A program made the translations under genes and the position numbers. A stretch of 64,000 bases of DNA from assembly GCF_054482525.1 (NCBI RefSeq), contig NZ_CM137006.1, one strand, 5' to 3'. Shown one piece after another: positions 32,532 through 61,993 of the stretch (the stretch's first letter is position 1; every line of letters begins with the position of its first letter). Below the pieces are notes generated by a model. That model did no database searches. It was not told the DNA's origin and saw only the letters and a program-made list of their open reading frames with translations.

Positions 32532-34007
<1,476 letters not shown>

Positions 34008-52744: not shown

Positions 52745-52843
52745 AGGTTCTACTTAGCAAAGGTGCTTTAAAAAGTGAAGCGATGTTGTATCAGCATCCG
52801 TTCATTATTGTTGTAACAACGACAATTCCTTTCTGTGGGAAAA

Positions 52844-53200
52844 TTAACAAAGGCGCTCCAGATCGTGTGCATATAATTCAGCGGCTACCGATTGATAGAT
52901 CTTCCAGTCAATAAAATTGCCATCAGGGTAGACACGTTGAAACGCGGTTAAGTCGGGGAAAAAACGCATGGTGTTGTTGCCGATGCGGTTATTTATTTTC
53001 TCTATGATGGCATGAAGATGTTTTTTTCGTTGCTGTCGCATAGCCAACAGTTGCTCGACCACACGATCAGGAATGGCGCATTTGCCATTTTCCCACTGAC
53101 GCCAGCTTTCATTGTCACCGGTCTGGGCAATCCAGGTCGCGCATTCATCAATAGTCATAGCAAAAATATGGCGAAGAGCCTGGAGTTCATAAGCGTTCAT
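52844..53200 (-). CDS. ydiL: Uncharacterized protein YdiL (118 aa; start at ATG giving MNAYELQ)
   Basis: Recognised sequence; last core gene before the accessory element. Confidence 0.8.
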   Translation of the reverse strand: MNAYELQALRHIFAMTIDECATWIAQTGDNESWRQWENGKCAIPDRVVEQLLAMRQQRKKHLHAIIEKINNRIGNNTMRFFPDLTAFQRVYPDGNFIDWKIYQSVAAELYAHDLERLC

Positions 53201-53338
53201 CGTGTAATGGCTGCATGAAATAAACAATAAAATATAAATAACATTATCAGCCTGCCGACGGCTTGAAGAGAGTCACAGTATCTTGTGCAACATTATTGGA
53301 AAGCGTGAGGGGCGAGGTAGCGAAGCGGAAAAATGTTA

Positions 53339-53443
53339 AAAAAAAGCCCATCGTGGGAGATGGGCAAAGACTACACACAGCAATTCGTTGTTTCACTCAG
53401 GGGATTTAAGTCATTGATTGATTTATGGGTATGCGGTTTTTCG
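53339..53443 (-). ncRNA. rprA: sRNA RprA (3' ~69 nt canonical, 5' end divergent)
   Basis: Minus strand 53407->53339 reads AAAUCCCCUGAGUGAAACAACGAAUUGCUGUGUGUAGUCUUUGCCCAUCUCCCACGAUGGGCUUUUUUU (rpoS-pairing region plus terminator); the 5' end coordinate is extrapolated from the expected length. Confidence 0.7.
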
Positions 53444-53472
53444 GCATAAACCAAATTAAGCAAGGCTTGAAA

Positions 53473-54054
53473 ATGGACACACAAATTGCACACATATCGC
53501 ACACAAATAAAAAGGGGTATGTATGGCGCAAGCGTTATGAAAAACGCACGATTGAAATCATCCTACGCACCCGTGATAAATCAATTGCCATAAAAAGAGC
53601 GGCATCAATAACAATTCGCTATATGGAATTAAAATCACTTGACGTTCCATTTAAAGCAATGCTGGAAATGTTAAAAAAGTTTCGTGATGGTCTGATTACG
53701 TCACATGACATTGAGCGCTTAAGGTCGATTGCGATAGCTTCACAGGAAGCTCCACACGCCGCTGTAACCGCTTCGCCTATACAAAGTGTTGGCTATGATG
53801 TCAAAACCGCTCAGAAAGCCGCACAGGGGCATTCCCTTGGCGATGCTCAAAAAGTGTACTTTGGCGCCAACACCGAATGGAAAGAAAAAACCATCAAGGC
53901 TTATTCTGGTTGTATCGACCGCTTTATTTTATGGTGCGCTAATAAAAATATTCATACCGTGGAAGAAATAACGAAAGAGCATGTGATTTCATTTAAATCC
54001 AGCATGGATGAAGAAAAATTAGCCTCCATGACTAAATTTCGCATAATAATATGA
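53473..54054 (+). pseudogene. Tyrosine-recombinase (integrase)-like N-terminal fragment; catalytic domain absent
   Basis: ORF ends after a SAM-like core-binding segment (TIKAYSGCIDRFILWCANKNIHTVEEITKEHVISFKSSMDEEKLASMT); no downstream RHRY catalytic domain; start uncertain (53425/53473). Confidence 0.4.
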
Positions 54055-54362
54055 TTCGGGTTAGCATAACCAATACTTTTATTAAAGCCTATGTATGCAC
54101 CAATTTCTTTATACTTTAACTTAGTGAAATCTGAAATAATACTCAGTGGCTGCAATACGTTATGTCCATTGTGCGCCCCTTCATTAGCGCAAAATCCTGT
54201 ATTTGCAAACTGACCTTTATCACGCCAGATGAATCTATCAACGCCGCCACATACAGGACATGGTGTATGTTCATTTGGTTTAATATCAATTCCAAAATCA
54301 TTCATATGCACCAATGGATTCTTTTTAATATAATTATTCAAATCAGTAAAGAAATTAGCCAT
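53952..54362 (-). pseudogene. Primase N-terminal zinc-ribbon fragment (P4-alpha/T7-gp4-type CPxCGG..C), truncated
   Basis: HTPCPVCGGVDRFIWRDKGQFANTGFCANEGAH zinc-ribbon signature; ORF stops after about 135 aa and overlaps the integrase fragment on the opposite strand. Confidence 0.45.
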
Positions 54363-54681
54363 TATATTTGCTCCCGTATCGCCTTGCTGGATGCTTTGCA
54401 AAGAAATCAACGATATCTTGTTTGCGATACCAGATATAACCGTCTAATTCATGATGAATTTCTTGCGGAAATTCTTTAGGGTTAAAGCGTTTGGCGGCAT
54501 AAAACATTGGTTTAGTAACACCAGATAAAGCAATTGCATCATTGCCACACACAAGCCCTGTAAGTTGCACTTTCTGCGATTGTTCTTTTATCTGTGCCGC
54601 GATTAGCCTTTTATTCTCATTAACGTATTTTTCAATCTGTAGCTTACGCATTTTTTCGCGCATGTAATTTATATCGGTCAT
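54355..54681 (-). CDS. AlpA/excisionase-like DNA-binding protein
   Basis: 108-aa ORF; C-terminal segment TKPMFYAAKRFNPKEFPQEIHHELDGYIWYRKQDIVDFF resembles AlpA-family HTH. Confidence 0.5.
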   Translation of the reverse strand: MTDINYMREKMRKLQIEKYVNENKRLIAAQIKEQSQKVQLTGLVCGNDAIALSGVTKPMFYAAKRFNPKEFPQEIHHELDGYIWYRKQDIVDFFAKHPARRYGSKYNG

Positions 54682-54697
54682 TTTAGTATCCTATATA

Positions 54698-56200
54698 TTA
54701 AGTCATTATCTGTGCTGGTGGGGTAATGATATGAATTATCCCTCGATTATTCATAATGAATCTACATCGTTCAAGCCCTGTAATTGCTCGCTTTATATTA
54801 TTTGGCTGCATTTTATACTCAGTTTTTAATGCCTTCGTTAAATCGGATTCATGTACACAGCCATCAGCACTAAATTCCATTAACTGTATTATCATTTCTA
54901 AAACTCGTTCTTGTGCTGGTGCATTTTTCTTTTTTAACTCGCTCATATATGAGTCGTAAGCGAGAGTATTATTACGCGCAGCATTTTGAGTAAAATTAAC
55001 TCCTGCTTCATATGATTCTGCATTTACAGCGTTTTGCATTAATTGCTTATTTTGCTGTTGCGTTGTTAGTGGTTGCCGCTGTTGCGTGTGCATTTGCGCA
55101 TAATCATTTATCGGTGATTGCTGCATGATAAATGGTTCATCATTAGCTTGTTTGCGTTCTATTTTTCCTGCTGCAATTACTGGAGTTGGCCTATCAATAA
55201 ATACCAACGTCTTAGTATTGGCGTTTACCTGATAACCTTTTGCATTTTCTTCGGGATAATCGCATAATTCATTATTAATATCATGTAATTCACAGACGGT
55301 AATTCCGTTATCCGCTGTGCATAAATCAAATTGCATCACTGGTAATTTTGCAGCGCTACGGTTTTTTTCGATAGTGAGTGATACGGATAACCCAAAATCA
55401 TTACCCTGCATTTGCTCTAGTTTAATGACTGTATCAGAGTCATTTTTAAGGGTAATGGCTCCTTTCATACCTTTAGCCGCATCTTTGCCGCCGTGGTGAA
55501 CCATCAAGACAAAAGAATTTGTTTCTACTGCAATTCTTTTCAAAATCGAAATCAGCTTACGCATTGCAATAGCATCATTTTCATCAGGATTTTCCATATC
55601 CAAAATGGTTTTTCCATCAATGCTTTTTTTTGTGTAGTATGCCAAAAATGAAGAAAGCGTATCAAAACAAATGATGCCGCCTTTGTTATTGGTGATTTTA
55701 TTTACATCATTTATTATTCGATTCTGTATTTCTTTATCAAATAAGTTTATTTGTGGTGACAAGATGTGCATTCTGTCATTTTTAACGCCACTATTAAACT
55801 TATTAGACCACGCTGTATTTCGATCTTTGATTTCAACGCCTGTTTCACCATCAAAATAAAAAGCATGGCATTCTTTAGCAACTCGCAAACCAGCCCACGG
55901 TTTACCCTGTGCAACTCTGTTTAAAAGAGATAATGCCGCAAATGATTTGCCTGTGTTGGATTCACCATAAAGGAAGCCGACCTGTTTTCGGTTAAATAGA
56001 TTTTCAATTACAGGGCGTAACCGCTTTTCTGATTGCAATTGAATTTCAGCTAATTCAATTGCACACAATTCATCATTTATACCATCATATTCAGACCACT
56101 CACCGTAGTTGGCGGGTGCGTAATAATCAATCGCGAGAGTGTAATAATAATCAGGAATAGCAGACCAATCAATAAACATTCCTGTGCACATATCATTCAC
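54698..56200 (-). CDS. RepA-like/RecA-fold P-loop ATPase (replicative helicase-type) with C-terminal putative winged-helix domain
   Basis: 500-aa ORF; Walker A GESNTGKS, Walker B-like IICFDTLSS, LMVHHGGK; adjacent iteron array. Confidence 0.6.
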   Translation of the reverse strand: MNDMCTGMFIDWSAIPDYYYTLAIDYYAPANYGEWSEYDGINDELCAIELAEIQLQSEKRLRPVIENLFNRKQVGFLYGESNTGKSFAALSLLNRVAQGKPWAGLRVAKECHAFYFDGETGVEIKDRNTAWSNKFNSGVKNDRMHILSPQINLFDKEIQNRIINDVNKITNNKGGIICFDTLSSFLAYYTKKSIDGKTILDMENPDENDAIAMRKLISILKRIAVETNSFVLMVHHGGKDAAKGMKGAITLKNDSDTVIKLEQMQGNDFGLSVSLTIEKNRSAAKLPVMQFDLCTADNGITVCELHDINNELCDYPEENAKGYQVNANTKTLVFIDRPTPVIAAGKIERKQANDEPFIMQQSPINDYAQMHTQQRQPLTTQQQNKQLMQNAVNAESYEAGVNFTQNAARNNTLAYDSYMSELKKKNAPAQERVLEMIIQLMEFSADGCVHESDLTKALKTEYKMQPNNIKRAITGLERCRFIMNNRGIIHIITPPAQIMT

Positions 56201-56247
56201 CGTAATTTGGGTATTTAATTAAGAAAAATTCAATTACTTCTTCTTTT

Positions 56248-56400
56248 TTATATAGATGCTTTGTTTTTTTTGTTTTTATCGCAAGTAACTAAATGCTCTT
56301 TTGGAAATTCTTTAGGGTTAAAACGTTTAGCCATATAAAAAGCGGTTGAGCCAATTTTAGCCAAAAGTTGTGCTTCACGAGGTGTAATTAAGTCGCTCAT
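56248..56400 (-). pseudogene. Second, truncated AlpA-like copy (50 codons)
   Basis: MSDLITPREAQLLAKIGSTAFYMAKRFNPKEFPKE...; DNA about 56305-56340 is an imperfect duplicate of 54473-54510; ends in a poly-T/A tract. Confidence 0.35.
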
Positions 56401-56689
56401 GTAGGGTATCTCTTAGATGTATTCTGAGTGCGGTCATGGTAGGCGAGGGGAGGAATAGCGGCAAGCATTACCGGATATAGTAAGCACTACCAGCTAAAGT
56501 CTAACTAACTGTCAACAGATTGAGGCTAAAACCACTGTATGTAAATTCAATTTTAAAAATTAAAAATCATTCTGGCTTAACTAATTATGCTCAATTTAAA
56601 TTGAATCTGATAATAAAAAGAATCAATAAAATGGATTTAGTGATTTTTAGTTGGACGAAATCGTTCATTTTATGTGCATTGCTCGCTGG

Positions 56690-56925
56690 TGATAATTCAA
56701 CCAATCCATTCAACCTATTCGAATGGGTGGTGAATTTTTGACCGAATTAAATTCACCTGAATATTCACCGAATGATTCACCTGAATCATTCAGCCCTTCA
56801 TTCACCACGAAACCCAGGCGCGGCGGGGCTTACAGGCCGATTCATTCACCTGAATATTCACCTGAATATTCACCTGAATTATTCAACCAAAAATTCACCT
56901 TCATATTCACTCATTCACCTCTCTA
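56690..56925. repeat. Iteron array: at least 9 TTCACC hexamers, including tandem palindromic 12-mers ATTCACCTGAAT
   Basis: TTCACC at 56751, 56763, 56775, 56800, 56844, 56856, 56868, 56893, 56913; three exact tandem 12-mers at 56843-56878. Confidence 0.65.
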
Positions 56926-57236
56926 TAAATAAGCATTGGAATGCTTTTTATAGAGGTTGATGAATGAAGGTCGTTCAAGTGAATGAACTGTGAGTTGGGT
57001 AAACCCCTAGGGGTTGGGGGTGTTGTCGATTTGTGGTAAATTCCTTCTGCCAGCGTGAAAAAGGCGCTGGTGGGGATTTGCAGCCCCAAACAAACAAAAC
57101 CATTGGCAAGGAATTGCCGATGCGCGTGCGCACGTCAGTTATGGCGGTCACGGCGAGGGAGTCGAAAGGCTCGCCAGTTTTGTTTGTTTGCTGGTACTGC
57201 AAACCTCGTCGTGATCGTCACCACGGGGATGCATGT

Positions 57237-57488
57237 ATGCAGGAAACAGACTGGCACAAAGCGGATATTCTTGCCTCTTTAAAGAAAAAGAAAATCAGCA
57301 TGGCGGGATTATCCCGTGAACATGGTTTATCAAGTAGCACGTTGCTAAATGCACTTAGTAGAGAATGGCCTAGAGGCGAATTAATTATTGCTAATGCAAT
57401 TGGTGTGTCACCTCAAGAAATATGGCCTTCTAGGTATTTTGAAAAAGATGGCTCTCCAAAAAATCGTGTGATTCGTAAACCTGTTTAA
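57237..57488 (+). CDS. Ner-like DNA-binding protein (Mu Ner / Nlp family)
   Basis: 83 aa MQETDWHKADILASLKKKKISMAGLSREHGLSSSTLLNALSREWPRGELIIANAIGVSPQEIWPSRY matches the Ner family signature; upstream in-frame extension of track ORF judged non-coding. Confidence 0.7.
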   Translation: MQETDWHKADILASLKKKKISMAGLSREHGLSSSTLLNALSREWPRGELIIANAIGVSPQEIWPSRYFEKDGSPKNRVIRKPV

Positions 57489-57705
57489 ATAAGTCAATGC
57501 GTCTCTGATTAAAAGGGGCGCATTTTTGTTTTTACTGACTTGTTGCAATGTGGGATATGTTGCGCACGTGTGTGCGATAGTTGTTAATTGTTTTTTGTAC
57601 TAGTTAACAAATACGAATTTTCTGAGGGTGCTATTTTGGGTTTTAGCTGCGGCTTCGCCTTGCTGCCCTTCGGGCTGGTGGTGCAAGAAGAATGTTTGAA
57701 AACTT

Positions 57706-57751
57706 CCTTTTCTTTGCTTCACCAGCCCCGTAGGGGCGTGAGCGTAGCGAA
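57706..57751 (+). repeat. 46-bp direct repeat, copy 1 (identical to 61912-61957)
   Basis: ccttttctttgcttcaccagccccgtaggggcgtgagcgtagcgaa; contains hairpin GCCCC-GTA-GGGGC. Confidence 0.85.
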
Positions 57752-57849
57752 CCTAATCACTTTGATTTTGACACATATCGGTTCTATCATTTTCAGGAAA
57801 ATCATCATAGAATTATATAAAACATACGATTTTTAAGGTGAATTTTTAA

Positions 57850-59001
57850 ATGCACGAGAAAGCGCAAACAAAAATAAAAGATACTATTAGAGAAATACTA
57901 ATCACTCCAGCAATCGCTTTTACTGGTCGTGCAGGTCATTTTGATTTTTCATTATATGAAGTTTTAGCAAATGAGCTTAACAAAAGAAAGATAAAGTTTA
58001 AAATTGATAAATTATCATGTTGGATTATTTTTGATGGCGCAAAAAAACATTACTTTCAAGATAAATCAATTACTGACGCACAAGCGATAAATGATTTTGT
58101 GGATACGTTATGTAGTATTTACTGTGAAACACCTATGGATTACTCCATCGATTTTCACTTTAGAAATTTAAAAATCGATATCAACCCGATTGATTATGAG
58201 TTTGTTTCAATTAGAGCGGGTGAGGATATTGGTATTGGTTTGTTCGCTGAAAAAGAAAAGTATGCGATTGCGAGCATTAAAAAGAATGGCTATCTTTCAG
58301 GTGGTTATCCTAGCTCATTTATAAAATCGATTTTGCAAGATTTGAAAATCTTCATTTTTTTGATTAAAAGCATTAATTTGATTAAGACAGGAAAAACCAA
58401 TTTAGCATCCACGTTATTTCAATCGATGTCCGGTCATGCTGACACAATTAAGATTGATTGCGTTAATGTTAAATATCCTTGGATGAATAGCAGTGTCCAT
58501 ATTTCAGAGTCGGTAGGGAAATTTTTACACAACTTTATCTTCAATTATGAATTTGAAGAAGGCTACATTATAGAAAAAATAGATCATTCGCTTCAGCTAA
58601 TGAATGCAATAGTAAAAGATGAGTCAAAAGAAGCCTTGCGTATCAAGGCTGCAATTGATTGGTTGGTGCAATCTGAAATCACTGATGATGAAACCATGTC
58701 TTTTATTCAAATTTGCATGGGGCTTGAATCAATTTTTGGTGATGATGATTATGAGGGTGGCCTAACAAACATACTATCTGATAGATGCGCCTACTTAATA
58801 GGGAATAAAATTAAAGAGAGGAGATTTATAAAGGACACATTTAAAAAAATATATCAAGTTAGGTCAAAGATAGTGCATGGCGTAAGAAATCATTTATCAG
58901 ATGATGAATTATATTTTAGGCATTTAGCATATTCATATTTAGAGCGTTCTATTCTAAAAGAAATTCAAAATTTAGACCTGCAATCCCATCAGGCGACGTG
59001 A
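57850..59001 (+). CDS. Hypothetical 383-aa protein with C-terminal HEPN-like R-x4-H-G motif (candidate Abi-type RNase)
   Basis: Long AT-rich ORF with SD aaggtg 11 nt upstream; RSKIVHG at residues 338-344 (nt 58861-58881) in a helical C-terminal domain. Confidence 0.65.
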   Translation: MHEKAQTKIKDTIREILITPAIAFTGRAGHFDFSLYEVLANELNKRKIKFKIDKLSCWIIFDGAKKHYFQDKSITDAQAINDFVDTLCSIYCETPMDYSIDFHFRNLKIDINPIDYEFVSIRAGEDIGIGLFAEKEKYAIASIKKNGYLSGGYPSSFIKSILQDLKIFIFLIKSINLIKTGKTNLASTLFQSMSGHADTIKIDCVNVKYPWMNSSVHISESVGKFLHNFIFNYEFEEGYIIEKIDHSLQLMNAIVKDESKEALRIKAAIDWLVQSEITDDETMSFIQICMGLESIFGDDDYEGGLTNILSDRCAYLIGNKIKERRFIKDTFKKIYQVRSKIVHGVRNHLSDDELYFRHLAYSYLERSILKEIQNLDLQSHQAT

Positions 59002-59288: not shown

Positions 59289-59732
59289 TCAGCACTGGTA
59301 AAAGTTGGCGAGGTGTGGAATATGGCTGGTGGTGGTTTCGAAAGCCTTGAGGCGTCCATTTTTATCTTTTTTCAAGTAGAGCATTTTTAGTGCTGGTGGA
59401 AATACTGAATCCATAATTCCATAAACTCCCACATTTTCGTTTTCTTCTTTAAGCATTCCCCAATATTGATAACCATTTAATGCGCTATCATCAATGCCCG
59501 TTCCAACGCGCTTAATGTGGGCAAGATATCGGCCTTTTATCGTAAAGCTAAATGATTCATCACGTTCATTTGTGCAAGTGTAAAATCCATCATCGCTTTC
59601 ATTTATAACTTCAGATGCTTCACGATTTAATGAGTACTTGTCTAAGTTGTTTATGATGTCACTTCGCTGTGCGCATCCAGTCAAATTTAGAATGGTAAAA
59701 ATTAGTACAGAAGATGCAAGATATTTGTTCAT
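59289..59732 (-). CDS. Hypothetical lipoprotein (147 aa)
   Basis: MNKYLASSVLIFTILNLTGC signal peptide plus lipobox; start at internal ATG 59732. Confidence 0.6.
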   Translation of the reverse strand: MNKYLASSVLIFTILNLTGCAQRSDIINNLDKYSLNREASEVINESDDGFYTCTNERDESFSFTIKGRYLAHIKRVGTGIDDSALNGYQYWGMLKEENENVGVYGIMDSVFPPALKMLYLKKDKNGRLKAFETTTSHIPHLANFYQC

Positions 59733-59818
59733 TTTGATTATCCATATGAAAAGCAAGGTACTTAGATTAAATTACCCTGCTTAAGCAGTAATTAGCGGTT
59801 CCGTTAATAGAGGGTAGA

Positions 59819-60178
59819 TTATTTGTTAATTTGTTTTTTAGTGTGTGAGATAAAATTTCTAAGTAAATCTTTTTCAATTACAATTTCACATTTTAGGTTT
59901 TGGCTATCGACCGCATCAATTCTATCAAACCAAAACATTAATTCCTGGCTTGCATCGCATTTACGTTTGAATTTAATTGCCCTGCCGAATTTTTCACTTA
60001 AAGAATCATCATCACATAAAAAATAAATTTTATTATTAATGGTGATTTGAATTAAATATGTCTTCCTCGTTAGGTAATCTAACCTTTCGTTAGCTTTCAG
60101 TAAGTTAGCTTCAGCTTGTTTGATGCGTATAAGAGCATCCTCTTTGCTTAAAGGGGATGTATTGACAGACTTGATCAT
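59819..60178 (-). CDS. Hypothetical protein (119 aa), upstream partner of the lipoprotein gene
   Basis: ORF co-oriented with and 62 bp upstream of the lipoprotein gene; no recognisable family. Confidence 0.5.
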   Translation of the reverse strand: MIKSVNTSPLSKEDALIRIKQAEANLLKANERLDYLTRKTYLIQITINNKIYFLCDDDSLSEKFGRAIKFKRKCDASQELMFWFDRIDAVDSQNLKCEIVIEKDLLRNFISHTKKQINK

Positions 60179-60287
60179 AATTTAATCCTTTGGTTAAGAT
60201 TCATCAAAAATATGCCATAAATAGCCTTGAAGGTTGTGTGGAATACATATTATGATAGCTTCATCTAATCAGCAAGGGGAATAATAG

Positions 60288-60443
60288 ATGCCTTCTAAAC
60301 GTGTTATATGCTCACTTGATGAGCAAGAGTTAGATATTCTCGAAAAATATAAATTACATTATAAAAATATGCATGGCGTAAAATTAAACAGAACGGCAAT
60401 TATCAAAATGTTGATTAGTCGTCTATCAAAAGAAATTCAATAA
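60288..60443 (+). CDS. Small putative ribbon-helix-helix (CopG/Arc-like) regulator, 51 aa
   Basis: MPSKRVICSLDEQELDILEKYKLHYKNMHGVKLNRTAIIKMLISRLSKEIQ: beta-strand then two helices pattern; divergent from the minus-strand pair; below ORF-track cutoff, found by own reading. Confidence 0.45.
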   Translation: MPSKRVICSLDEQELDILEKYKLHYKNMHGVKLNRTAIIKMLISRLSKEIQ

Positions 60444-60495
60444 TAATTCTAATTACCAATTAATTTAAACTTCACATAATTAAAGAGGCAACTCT

Positions 60496-60810
60496 ATGCA
60501 CACTCTTTTTTCTAAATTTAAAAACAGGAAAATTAAAATGTATCAACCACGTTATAAAAGCAGAATGATTGACGATAATGAATATAATCAGGTGCTTCAA
60601 TCGAGAATGCAAAATCTTTTAAATCAATATAATAATGAGGTTTCAAACTTAACCCGCATTGGTGTTACAAATTTGGGTTTCGGCCGATGGGATAATGGAG
60701 AGAGCAAAATCAATAACCACGTTAATAAAGTAAGTGAGACTTTGGAAAAGATGCAATCTACGCAAGCCTTGATTGATGCTCTTGCAAATGAAATTACACA
60801 AACTAATTAA
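60496..60810 (+). CDS. Hypothetical small protein A (104 aa)
   Basis: ORF with SD aaagagg 8 nt upstream; AT-rich. Confidence 0.5.
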   Translation: MHTLFSKFKNRKIKMYQPRYKSRMIDDNEYNQVLQSRMQNLLNQYNNEVSNLTRIGVTNLGFGRWDNGESKINNHVNKVSETLEKMQSTQALIDALANEITQTN

Positions 60811-60894
60811 TCGAATGGGGGATGCTTTAAATGGTAATCGCAATCATGGTTGTAATGTTTTGGGCTTTCCTGATTCTTAAAGAGGAAATGAAAT

Positions 60895-61179
60895 ATGGTT
60901 AAATTTGGAGTGTTTTACCATCATGCATGGGGTGATGGTAAAAAGGAAATCCCGCCACCTGATTTAAATTACATCCGAACCGATCCACATAAAAATAATG
61001 AAATTGCTTTAGATGTTTTTGATTCAAGAATGGACGCACAAAAACGCGCTGATTTACTAAATTCACGCATGGCAAAAAATCAAACTGGTCAGCATTATGT
61101 TGCGCCAACAACGCAAGAAACCAAAACGGCTCAAAAGCGCTTTAAGTTTCCTTGTACTAGCATTTATGGGTGGAAATGA
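60895..61179 (+). CDS. Hypothetical small protein B (94 aa)
   Basis: ORF with SD aagagga; N-terminus KFGVFYHHAWGDGKKEIPPPD resembles that of protein C. Confidence 0.5.
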   Translation: MVKFGVFYHHAWGDGKKEIPPPDLNYIRTDPHKNNEIALDVFDSRMDAQKRADLLNSRMAKNQTGQHYVAPTTQETKTAQKRFKFPCTSIYGWK

Positions 61180-61181
61180 AA

Positions 61182-61556
61182 ATGAGTAAACAATTCGGTG
61201 TTTTCTTTTGGCGAAAAGGTGACGCTATTACCGATATCCCGTCAGATAAAAATGTTGCAAATCGCGGAGTAAAGCCTAAGCGCATTTTTTCAGATTATAT
61301 TGATGGAATGCGATATAAAGATAAAATGAATGCAACAATTCCAGCGGCGCAAAAAGGTAAATATGAATATGTATTAGCGGAAATTGTTGAACCAGACCCG
61401 AACAATACAAAGGTGTTGTTTAAATCTGGAAATTTAACAGAAGCATTAAGGGCGAAGCGACAAACAACCGAACAAATCAACCGAAATAAAATTGATGCAA
61501 TGATTAAAGAAGCCGCACACGATTACCTTTACACTATTACAGGAATGGAAAAATGA
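61182..61556 (+). CDS. Hypothetical small protein C (about 125 aa; start at ATG 61182 or 61176)
   Basis: QFGVFFWRKGDAITDIPSDKN N-terminus paralogous to B; abuts stop of B. Confidence 0.5.
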   Translation: MSKQFGVFFWRKGDAITDIPSDKNVANRGVKPKRIFSDYIDGMRYKDKMNATIPAAQKGKYEYVLAEIVEPDPNNTKVLFKSGNLTEALRAKRQTTEQINRNKIDAMIKEAAHDYLYTITGMEK

Positions 61557-61852
61557 TTATTGACGAGCGATTTATTAAATGGTCAATGGTGCTGGTGGAG
61601 GCCGGAAAGCCATCACCCAGCCTCGCGGGGCTTTATAAAGGAAACACTAAAGGATTAATCTTTTATAAAACACGTGAATTGGCATCAAATGCAGCCACTA
61701 AACGGAATGAGCAATTAGCAGGAACTAAATCAACCAGCCGATTTAAAATCATTAAATTGCATGACGCAGAAGCACAACAGAAACATGATTTTCAGTTAAA
61801 ACAGGAACGCCAGCGCCGCGATGCACGCCATATGCGCCGATTTGGTTTCTAA
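61553..61852 (+). CDS. Hypothetical small protein D (99 aa), basic C-terminus
   Basis: Start ATG overlaps stop of C (ATGA), indicating translational coupling. Confidence 0.5.
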   Translation: MIIDERFIKWSMVLVEAGKPSPSLAGLYKGNTKGLIFYKTRELASNAATKRNEQLAGTKSTSRFKIIKLHDAEAQQKHDFQLKQERQRRDARHMRRFGF

Positions 61853-61911: not shown

Positions 61912-61957
61912 CCTTTTCTTTGCTTCACCAGCCCCGTAGGGGCGTGAGCGTAGCGAA
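61912..61957 (+). repeat. 46-bp direct repeat, copy 2 (identical to 57706-57751)
   Basis: Same 46-mer, 37 bp upstream of the tape-measure-like ORF. Confidence 0.85.
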
Positions 61958-61993
61958 ATAAGTAACATTAATATCAAATCAGAGGTAAATAAA

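Follow-up and report, generated by a model that had tools for sequence, protein, structure and literature searches.

We examined a 64,000-nucleotide stretch of RefSeq assembly GCF_054482525.1 (contig NZ_CM137006.1), hereafter the window, whose DNA is Escherichia coli chromosome (ydiB, ydiN, ydiM, ydiL onwards). Toward its end lies what we consider, taking the explanation as a whole, very probably to be the left end of an integrative island that resembles a phage satellite and occupies the 3' end of the small RNA gene rprA: a formerly mobile element, now stranded and clonally inherited, whose deletion allele is confined to one clonal backbone and which is passed on vertically with the chromosome. 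A first-pass annotation of the window had proposed that truncated and duplicated mobility and replication modules betray a formerly mobile island, now immobile while retaining its cargo. We compared the region with intact relatives, and the comparison revealed a single deletion that removed the catalytic parts of both the integrase and the primase.

The borders of the island were readily recognized. Nearly all remaining E. coli genomes align to the window only through position 53407 (ydiL and rprA), and GC content drops to 30-40% from about 53400 onwards. Three complete genomes, 19KM1776, SCU-102 and PCN033, show 100% identity to window positions 52800-57600, and the island region of SCU-102 has 0 mismatches to the window over 11,292 bp. 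From the SCU-102 annotation and direct sequence comparison, the island measures 11,641 bp. It is flanked by perfect 71-bp direct repeats, identified as the longest common substring of attL and attR in SCU-102, which equal the 3' end of rprA. Complete rprA is located at the far island end, completed by island-borne sequence; because the island brings its own copy of the rprA 3' end, rprA remains intact. Complete copies at attR of relatives score 118.8 bits against the Rfam RprA model (RF00034); the attL fragment reaches 81.4 bits, above the gathering score of 70, and its 5' part, which matches poorly, contains a 21-nt insertion. In the literature searched, neither rprA nor ydiL/ydiK was found described as an integration site.

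The primary lesion became apparent by blastn against E. coli FREC5 (L001), which carries an intact relative at the same site. Window 52800-54036 pairs with L001 12001-13237 and window 54037-54636 with L001 15112-15711, leaving 1,874 bp of FREC5 (L001 13238-15111) absent from the window. The lost segment encodes integrase residues 189-401, a complete GIY-YIG/T5orf172 nuclease gene and primase residues 109-330. Relative to FREC5, and to FREC5 only (a reference 93% identical; the nearest intact reference is 89-93% identical to the window), the junction shows zero shared bases and no microhomology. A single illegitimate deletion joined integrase codon 188 to primase codon 109, and with the lost DNA went the active site of the recombinase, the nuclease gene and the catalytic domain of the primase. 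Deletions had been suspected behind the truncated modules from the outset, and against intact relatives both stumps prove to be made by this one event.

The domain content of the stumps agrees with the alignment. The integrase stump matches Pfam SAM-like core-binding models only (PF13495, 5.9e-07, 30.2 bits, cut-off 27), and the catalytic domain PF00589, at residues 234-385 of the intact FREC5 integrase, falls wholly outside it. The intact protein shows the motifs GMRVSE, HCYRHS and RVY; the C-terminal catalytic domain of tyrosine recombinases (R...HxxR...[H/W]...Y) is absent from the open reading frame (ORF) in the window. The FREC5 alignment and the Pfam domain positions, which include the checks that the first-pass annotation had proposed (alignment to intact elements and a search for catalytic residues), thus bear out its truncated integrase. 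Its placing of the stop after the core-binding segment needs correction, as the cut falls about 15 residues before the end that this domain has in the intact integrase. The primase stump retains Zn_Ribbon_Prim as its sole domain (PF08273, 7.7e-09, 36.2 bits, cut-off 23) and lacks the Toprim catalytic domain of T7 gp4/P4 alpha-type primases, and its 28 foreign residues are read from integrase antisense. In the intact FREC5 primase, Toprim_3 is found at residues 216-310 with 23.1 bits, below the Pfam cut-off of 27.2, and the PHROG 'DNA primase' match reaches 2.6e-25. The overlap of the stumps on opposite strands (53952-54054, 103 bp) is just as had been described, and arises because each reads over the junction into the other's antisense until a stop codon.

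Could the short form instead be ancestral, with FREC5, S10 and others having gained the 1.9 kb, for example as a GIY-YIG homing endonuclease cassette? Genes of the GIY-YIG/T5orf172 class are often mobile, and the absent segment does include one. However, the segment holds the only integrase catalytic domain and primase Toprim domain, and both stumps finish in out-of-frame tails taken from each other's antisense. All other family members that were examined, from four genera and three different sites, have the long form. Its presence in E. coli S10 (L003), Salmonella Baguida (L005), several other Salmonella and Hafnia alvei, across three integration sites, therefore indicates that the short form is derived, and we regard a gain of the segment as very improbable.

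A second lesion affects the small putative winged helix-turn-helix (wHTH) gene at the head of the leftward operon. Its ORF, 56400-56248, yields 50 aa, not 68, and ends just past an A8 run (T8 on the plus strand) at 56264-56271, which is the poly-T/A tract that the first-pass annotation had noticed at the end of this gene. In DNA alignments the run is A7 in FREC5, Salmonella Baguida and E. coli locus L016, and residual 3' coding sequence can be read in the +1 frame down to 56193. The frameshift is an event separate from the 1,874-bp deletion; a later slip from A7 to A8, within the window's own sublineage, truncated the protein. Long-read assemblies are error-prone at homopolymer runs, a circumstance that might lend itself to explaining junction and frameshift alike as assembly or sequencing artefacts. 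Yet three complete genomes, each sequenced independently, share both the junction and the A8 run, and some 300 public contigs encode exactly the stump proteins (297 and 316, in counts drawn from NCBI, ENA and Logan), while 260 encode the 50-aa product. The alternative allele, A7, was seen on 9 contigs (with four distinct places returned); L016, the one such locus compared as DNA, differs at four other sites too. The chance that these lesions are artefacts is, in our estimation, smaller still than that of an ancestral short form.

The two small wHTH genes were also reassessed for the imperfect repeat of roughly 35 bp that they share, which the first-pass annotation had taken as a duplication belonging to the decay. 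The repeat is real and extends over 44 nt (54461-54504 and 56297-56340, 37/44 identical); by a binomial estimate, a pair this good would arise by chance in 10.7 kb with a probability of about 1e-6. The peptide that it encodes is FY[A/M]AKRFNPKEFP[Q/K]E in both genes. Its link to decay does not hold: the same match between the two genes is 37/44 in the intact element of Salmonella Baguida, 32/44 in FREC5 and 25/44 in S10, and both genes (108 aa; 68-89 aa) are present in each of these intact elements. Judged by sequence, the genes are old paralogues, conserved in intact elements, and no sign of decay. The label 'AlpA-like' finds no sequence-profile support. The 108-aa, 50-aa, 68-aa and 89-aa proteins gave no relevant match in Pfam (to E = 10), NCBIfam (to E = 1), PHROGs (to E = 0.01) or a PDB-sequence profile search (to E = 10), and the Pfam family profiles Phage_AlpA and HTH_17 do not recognize them. 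A further candidate lesion, the absence from the window of a 96-aa gene of FREC5, was rejected, since the intact S10 element is also without this gene.

Further support for a stranded, vertically inherited element comes from its distribution. The deleted form was present in 3 of 5,426 complete genomes. Over the 22.7-kb chromosomal flank, likewise, identity reaches at least 99% in only three genomes and is 98.7% or less in all others; 19KM1776 and SCU-102 are listed among the three, both of them island carriers, and the third is presumably PCN033. Intact integrase of the FREC5 type occurs on 67 public contigs, and the reconstructed in-frame 68-aa small protein occurs exactly in public data. Locus L016 has the identical junction 40-mer and 99.955% identity to the window over 11.2 kb, together with A7, an intact 68-aa small gene and a nonsense codon, Q321*, in the tape-measure-like gene (window-equivalent 62954 C>T). 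L017 has stump-sized calls as in L016, its tape-measure-like gene is split likewise, and on another contig, L019, the helicase call is split. Since L016 shares the junction but carries A7 and Q321*, and the split helicase call is that of L019, the deletion preceded the secondary lesions, which differ by sublineage. The cargo that the island was said to retain is thus intact as ORFs in the window, but not throughout the lineage, the tape-measure-like gene being interrupted in the sister assembly L016.

Inactivation has also occurred in parallel. The same integrase type was disrupted independently by two frameshift alleles in E. coli, and in one of these cases (L015) the element is otherwise intact. 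In Enterobacter asburiae a split integrase is accompanied by loss of the entire replication and immunity block, which appears to fit recombination between two copies of an 85-110-nt repeat, one near the integrase and one near the HEPN gene.

With the catalytic integrase and the primase Toprim domain lost and the small wHTH protein truncated, the island would no longer have the means, in cis, to excise or integrate itself or to prime its replication. Pfam and PHROGs scans of the island ORFs revealed no further recombinase, and a complete integrase elsewhere in the element, which the first-pass annotation had named as the discovery that would undo its proposal, was not found. The deletion, the frameshift, the lack of another recombinase and the single clonal backbone all support its account of a formerly mobile island that is now immobile; immobility itself we infer from them. 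An alternative is that the island still moves in trans, using integrase or primase from a co-resident related element or a helper phage. Helpers excise and replicate some minimal satellites, the 71-bp att repeats are perfect, the helicase, 108-aa wHTH gene, iterons and C4 RNA are intact, and family members exchange integrases and helicases. Set against this, the three complete carrier genomes contain no DNA relative of the lost integrase/primase segment elsewhere, rprA on one clonal backbone is the only place where the deleted form has been seen, and different sublineages are gathering secondary null mutations, which affect the small wHTH gene, the tape-measure-like gene and the helicase call. 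We therefore consider continued movement in trans unlikely and favour a stranded island.

Several points nevertheless weigh against a stranded satellite. Given its perfect att repeats, intact helicase, iterons and intact 108-aa wHTH gene, the island might be moved or replicated by a related integrase and primase acting in trans. Transcriptional slippage can partly overcome an A8 run, and such a run can also revert. Neither an intact progenitor nor a full-length integrase belonging to the window's own sequence type was found, the latter in a non-exhaustive search that yielded the truncated cluster only and also missed the FREC5-type cluster. Finally, the intact family is no more than a candidate satellite family, as no helper phage is known and no packaging genes were detected.

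The features of the island are collected in Table 1. Five exact copies of ATTCACCTGAAT were found, against 0.32 expected by chance in the whole window, and the array that they form sits between the leftward replication operon and the rightward operon. These iterons are kept in FREC5, which has the same AAA_25 helicase, and are absent from S10, which has a DUF3987 helicase; the array is probably an origin of replication. The C4-class RNA opens the rightward arm immediately upstream of the Ner-like gene. Against the same Rfam model, the cI region of P4 scores 74.9 bits, and FREC5, S10 and Salmonella Baguida score 60-66 bits. The loop of its second hairpin has a 14-nt perfect complement on the same strand at 57087-57100, about 40 nt upstream, and is also complementary over 9-10 nt to 57864-57873, which lies 15 nt inside the HEPN ORF. 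This arrangement of RNA and complementary boxes recalls the seqA/seqB/seqC pairing of P4. A repeat of about 60 nt was considered as a target of the C4 RNA and rejected for lack of complementarity, the 14-nt complement lying at the upstream position given above. A scan for promoter and terminator consensus sequences did not rise above background and was not used.

Table 1. Features of the rprA island and its borders, in window coordinates
Feature	Position	Strand	Description
rprA 3' fragment at attL	53336..53456	-	Native part is the 3' 71 nt only; 5' part is island DNA
attL core	53337..53407	.	71-bp perfect repeat, equal to rprA 3' end
Integrase stump	53473..54054	+	193 aa: first 188 residues of a 401-aa tyrosine recombinase, then 5 foreign (FRIII)
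Primase stump	53952..54362	-	136 aa: residues 1-108 of a 330-aa Zn-ribbon + Toprim primase plus 28 foreign
Deletion junction	54036..54037	.	blastn against FREC5 island
108-aa wHTH protein	54355..54681	-	Putative: 40-residue N-terminal helix, C-terminal MerR/excisionase-type winged helix (AlpA-like fold); ORF intact
RepA/DnaB-like AAA_25 helicase	54698..56179	-	493 aa, intact ORF; Pfam AAA_25 1.8e-23; PHROG helicase-primase families
Small putative wHTH (AlpA-like) gene	56193..56400	-	Head of leftward operon; frameshifted
Iteron array	56751..56911	+	ATTCACCTGAAT, 5 exact and several degenerate copies; TRF and repeat finder
C4/CI-class antisense RNA	57137..57225	+	RF01695 65.8 bits, gathering score 45
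Ner/SfsB-like HTH_35 regulator	57237..57488	+	83 aa; Pfam HTH_35 2.4e-30; PHROG 'transcriptional repressor'
HEPN cargo protein	57850..59001	+	383 aa, intact ORF; C-terminal R-x4-H motif R338...H343
Seven small cargo ORFs, function unassigned	59289..61852	.	All intact; RefSeq annotation
Tape-measure-like protein	61994..63982	+	662 aa, intact here; Tape_meas_lam_C 8e-15; PHROG tape-measure families
attR core	window-equivalent 64978-65048	.	Second 71-bp repeat copy, ~1 kb past window end

Two larger proteins stand out among the cargo. The first, named HEPN domain protein in RefSeq, had no PADLOC or Pfam match. Among 31 homologues (22-90% identity), R338, S339, H343 and G344 of its RSKIVHG motif are invariant, and K340 and I341 nearly so. 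The protein diverges fast, with 35-47% identity between otherwise similar elements, and has relatives in Pseudomonas. The tape-measure-like protein is kept across the family at 661-737 aa within a non-phage island, and its best identity to any sequenced phage is only about 33% over about 90 aa. The small cargo ORFs that were scanned gave no PHROG, Pfam or PADLOC match. PADLOC recognized no known defence system among ten island proteins, comprising six cargo proteins of the window, the 205-aa protein at the attR end, the helicase, the Ner-like regulator and the PIN-domain protein of S10.

We also observed a conserved repeat of about 60-110 nt, with the core CCTTTTCTTTGCTTCACCAGCCCCGTAGGGGCGTGAGCGTAGCGAA, before the HEPN gene (57665-57775) and before the tape-measure-like gene (61912-61972). 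It also follows the integrase gene in intact relatives, and copies are recorded at L001 13880-13990 and L013 11232-11343. Outside the island, over the 22.7-kb flank, SCU-102 has 1 nt fewer than the window, whose exact match there is 19KM1776, not SCU-102. The gene selO (32571-34007, plus strand) is an intact 478-aa ORF in the window and is called frameshifted in the SCU-102 annotation.

The intact relatives share a common architecture and measure about 13-14.5 kb. In their left arm, a tyrosine integrase is followed by an opposite-strand operon directed towards it, which encodes in order a small wHTH protein, a helicase, the 108-aa wHTH protein, a Zn-ribbon/Toprim primase and a GIY-YIG/T5orf172 nuclease, with the probable origin iterons just upstream. 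The rightward arm carries the C4-class RNA, the Ner-like regulator, the HEPN protein, small ORFs and the tape-measure-like protein. Members have unrelated integrases (401, 418 and 450 aa), and their sites are rprA, a position beside a ybjS-like epimerase gene, and one between trmL-like and cpxA genes. The helicase alternates between AAA_25 and DUF3987, and the last cargo gene encodes a PIN_12 protein or one of two proteins without assigned function, of 205 and 454 aa.

The family is widespread and appears in several genera. One homologue of the 108-aa protein is listed in 7,129 index blocks, the names and the loci read being from Salmonella, and the family is recorded also in Citrobacter, Enterobacter, Hafnia, Kluyvera and E. 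coli. No megablast match to the island was found in phage and plasmid collections, and the integrase had no tblastn match in phages. A profile scan of genome contigs with the alignment of the 108-aa family gave no confirmed locus, because the species representatives are without the element. A scan of viral contigs yielded one locus only, apparently a prophage-region call, and was not informative. No description of this element family, or of satellites with tape-measure genes, was found in the searched literature.

We compared the island with known satellites. It shares with P4 its size class (P4, 11.6 kb), a tyrosine integrase adjoining the att site, a leftward replication operon headed by a small regulator of putative Vis/AlpA type, and iterons in the divergent region upstream. 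Its primase is homologous to the primase domain of P4 alpha (tblastn 1e-12 to 4.6e-19, 25% identity), and its C4-class RNA and the CI immunity RNA of P4 belong to one Rfam class, RF01695. Unlike P4, however, the island family has separate primase and helicase genes, the latter swappable (AAA_25 or DUF3987), places its C4-class RNA on the rightward operon ahead of the Ner-like gene, carries HEPN and tape-measure-like cargo, and uses an sRNA gene, rprA, as its attachment site. When all P4 proteins were searched by tblastn against the window, FREC5 and S10 islands, alpha alone matched, and sid, psu, delta, epsilon, the P4-type integrase and vis were undetected. In the island ORFs scanned, psu, sid, delta and epsilon had no PHROG or Pfam match either. 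P4-like satellites have been defined by seven components (int, psu, delta, sid, alpA and epsilon, along with alpha), of which two at most may be missing (PMC8628076). Of the at least five components so expected, the island offers at most three: a generic integrase, a putative AlpA-like fold and an alpha-like primase.

Similar comparisons can be drawn with Gram-negative phage-inducible chromosomal islands such as EcCICFT073. These have in common with the island an integrase, a regulator of putative AlpA type heading a primase/helicase operon, an adjacent probable iteron origin, a size of 10-15 kb and a purely chromosomal occurrence, no plasmid or phage record matching the island. They differ in orientation, as the integrase of the island is convergent with the replication operon, not divergent. 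None of the packaging genes of such islands (terS, rpp, cpm, ppi or capsid-redirecting genes) was detected by PHROGs or Pfam in the island ORFs scanned. Like cryptic prophage and satellite remnants of E. coli, the window copy would be stranded by loss of recombination and replication functions, inherited vertically and decaying piecemeal, with some cargo intact; it differs from them in that the inactivating event, the order of lesions and the parallel inactivations can be read from public genomes.

These likenesses lead us to a suggestion that we offer tentatively. The intact relatives may represent an undescribed family of P4-sized phage satellites of Enterobacteriaceae, with a P4-type CI/C4 RNA switch, interchangeable integrases and swappable helicases. 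In place of sid, psu and delta, such satellites might deploy a HEPN nuclease and a tape-measure-like protein against a siphovirus helper or competitor, and the copy in the window might be a domesticated remnant kept for its cargo.

The island also has consequences for annotation. In RefSeq both stumps created by the deletion (WP_001366382.1 and WP_071526501.1) appear as ordinary proteins, and the rprA 3' fragment at attL as a second rprA gene; all three are better read as pseudogenes or remnants. Decay of this kind is in itself routine biology, that of an ordinary stranded mobile element. The case is unusually well resolved, with the primary deletion, the order of later lesions and the parallel inactivations all traceable in public genomes. 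As far as the searched literature goes, rprA is a previously unreported attachment site. Of more interest than the decay is the element family itself, for its P4-like replication and immunity parts, its rprA site and its HEPN and tape-measure-like cargo.

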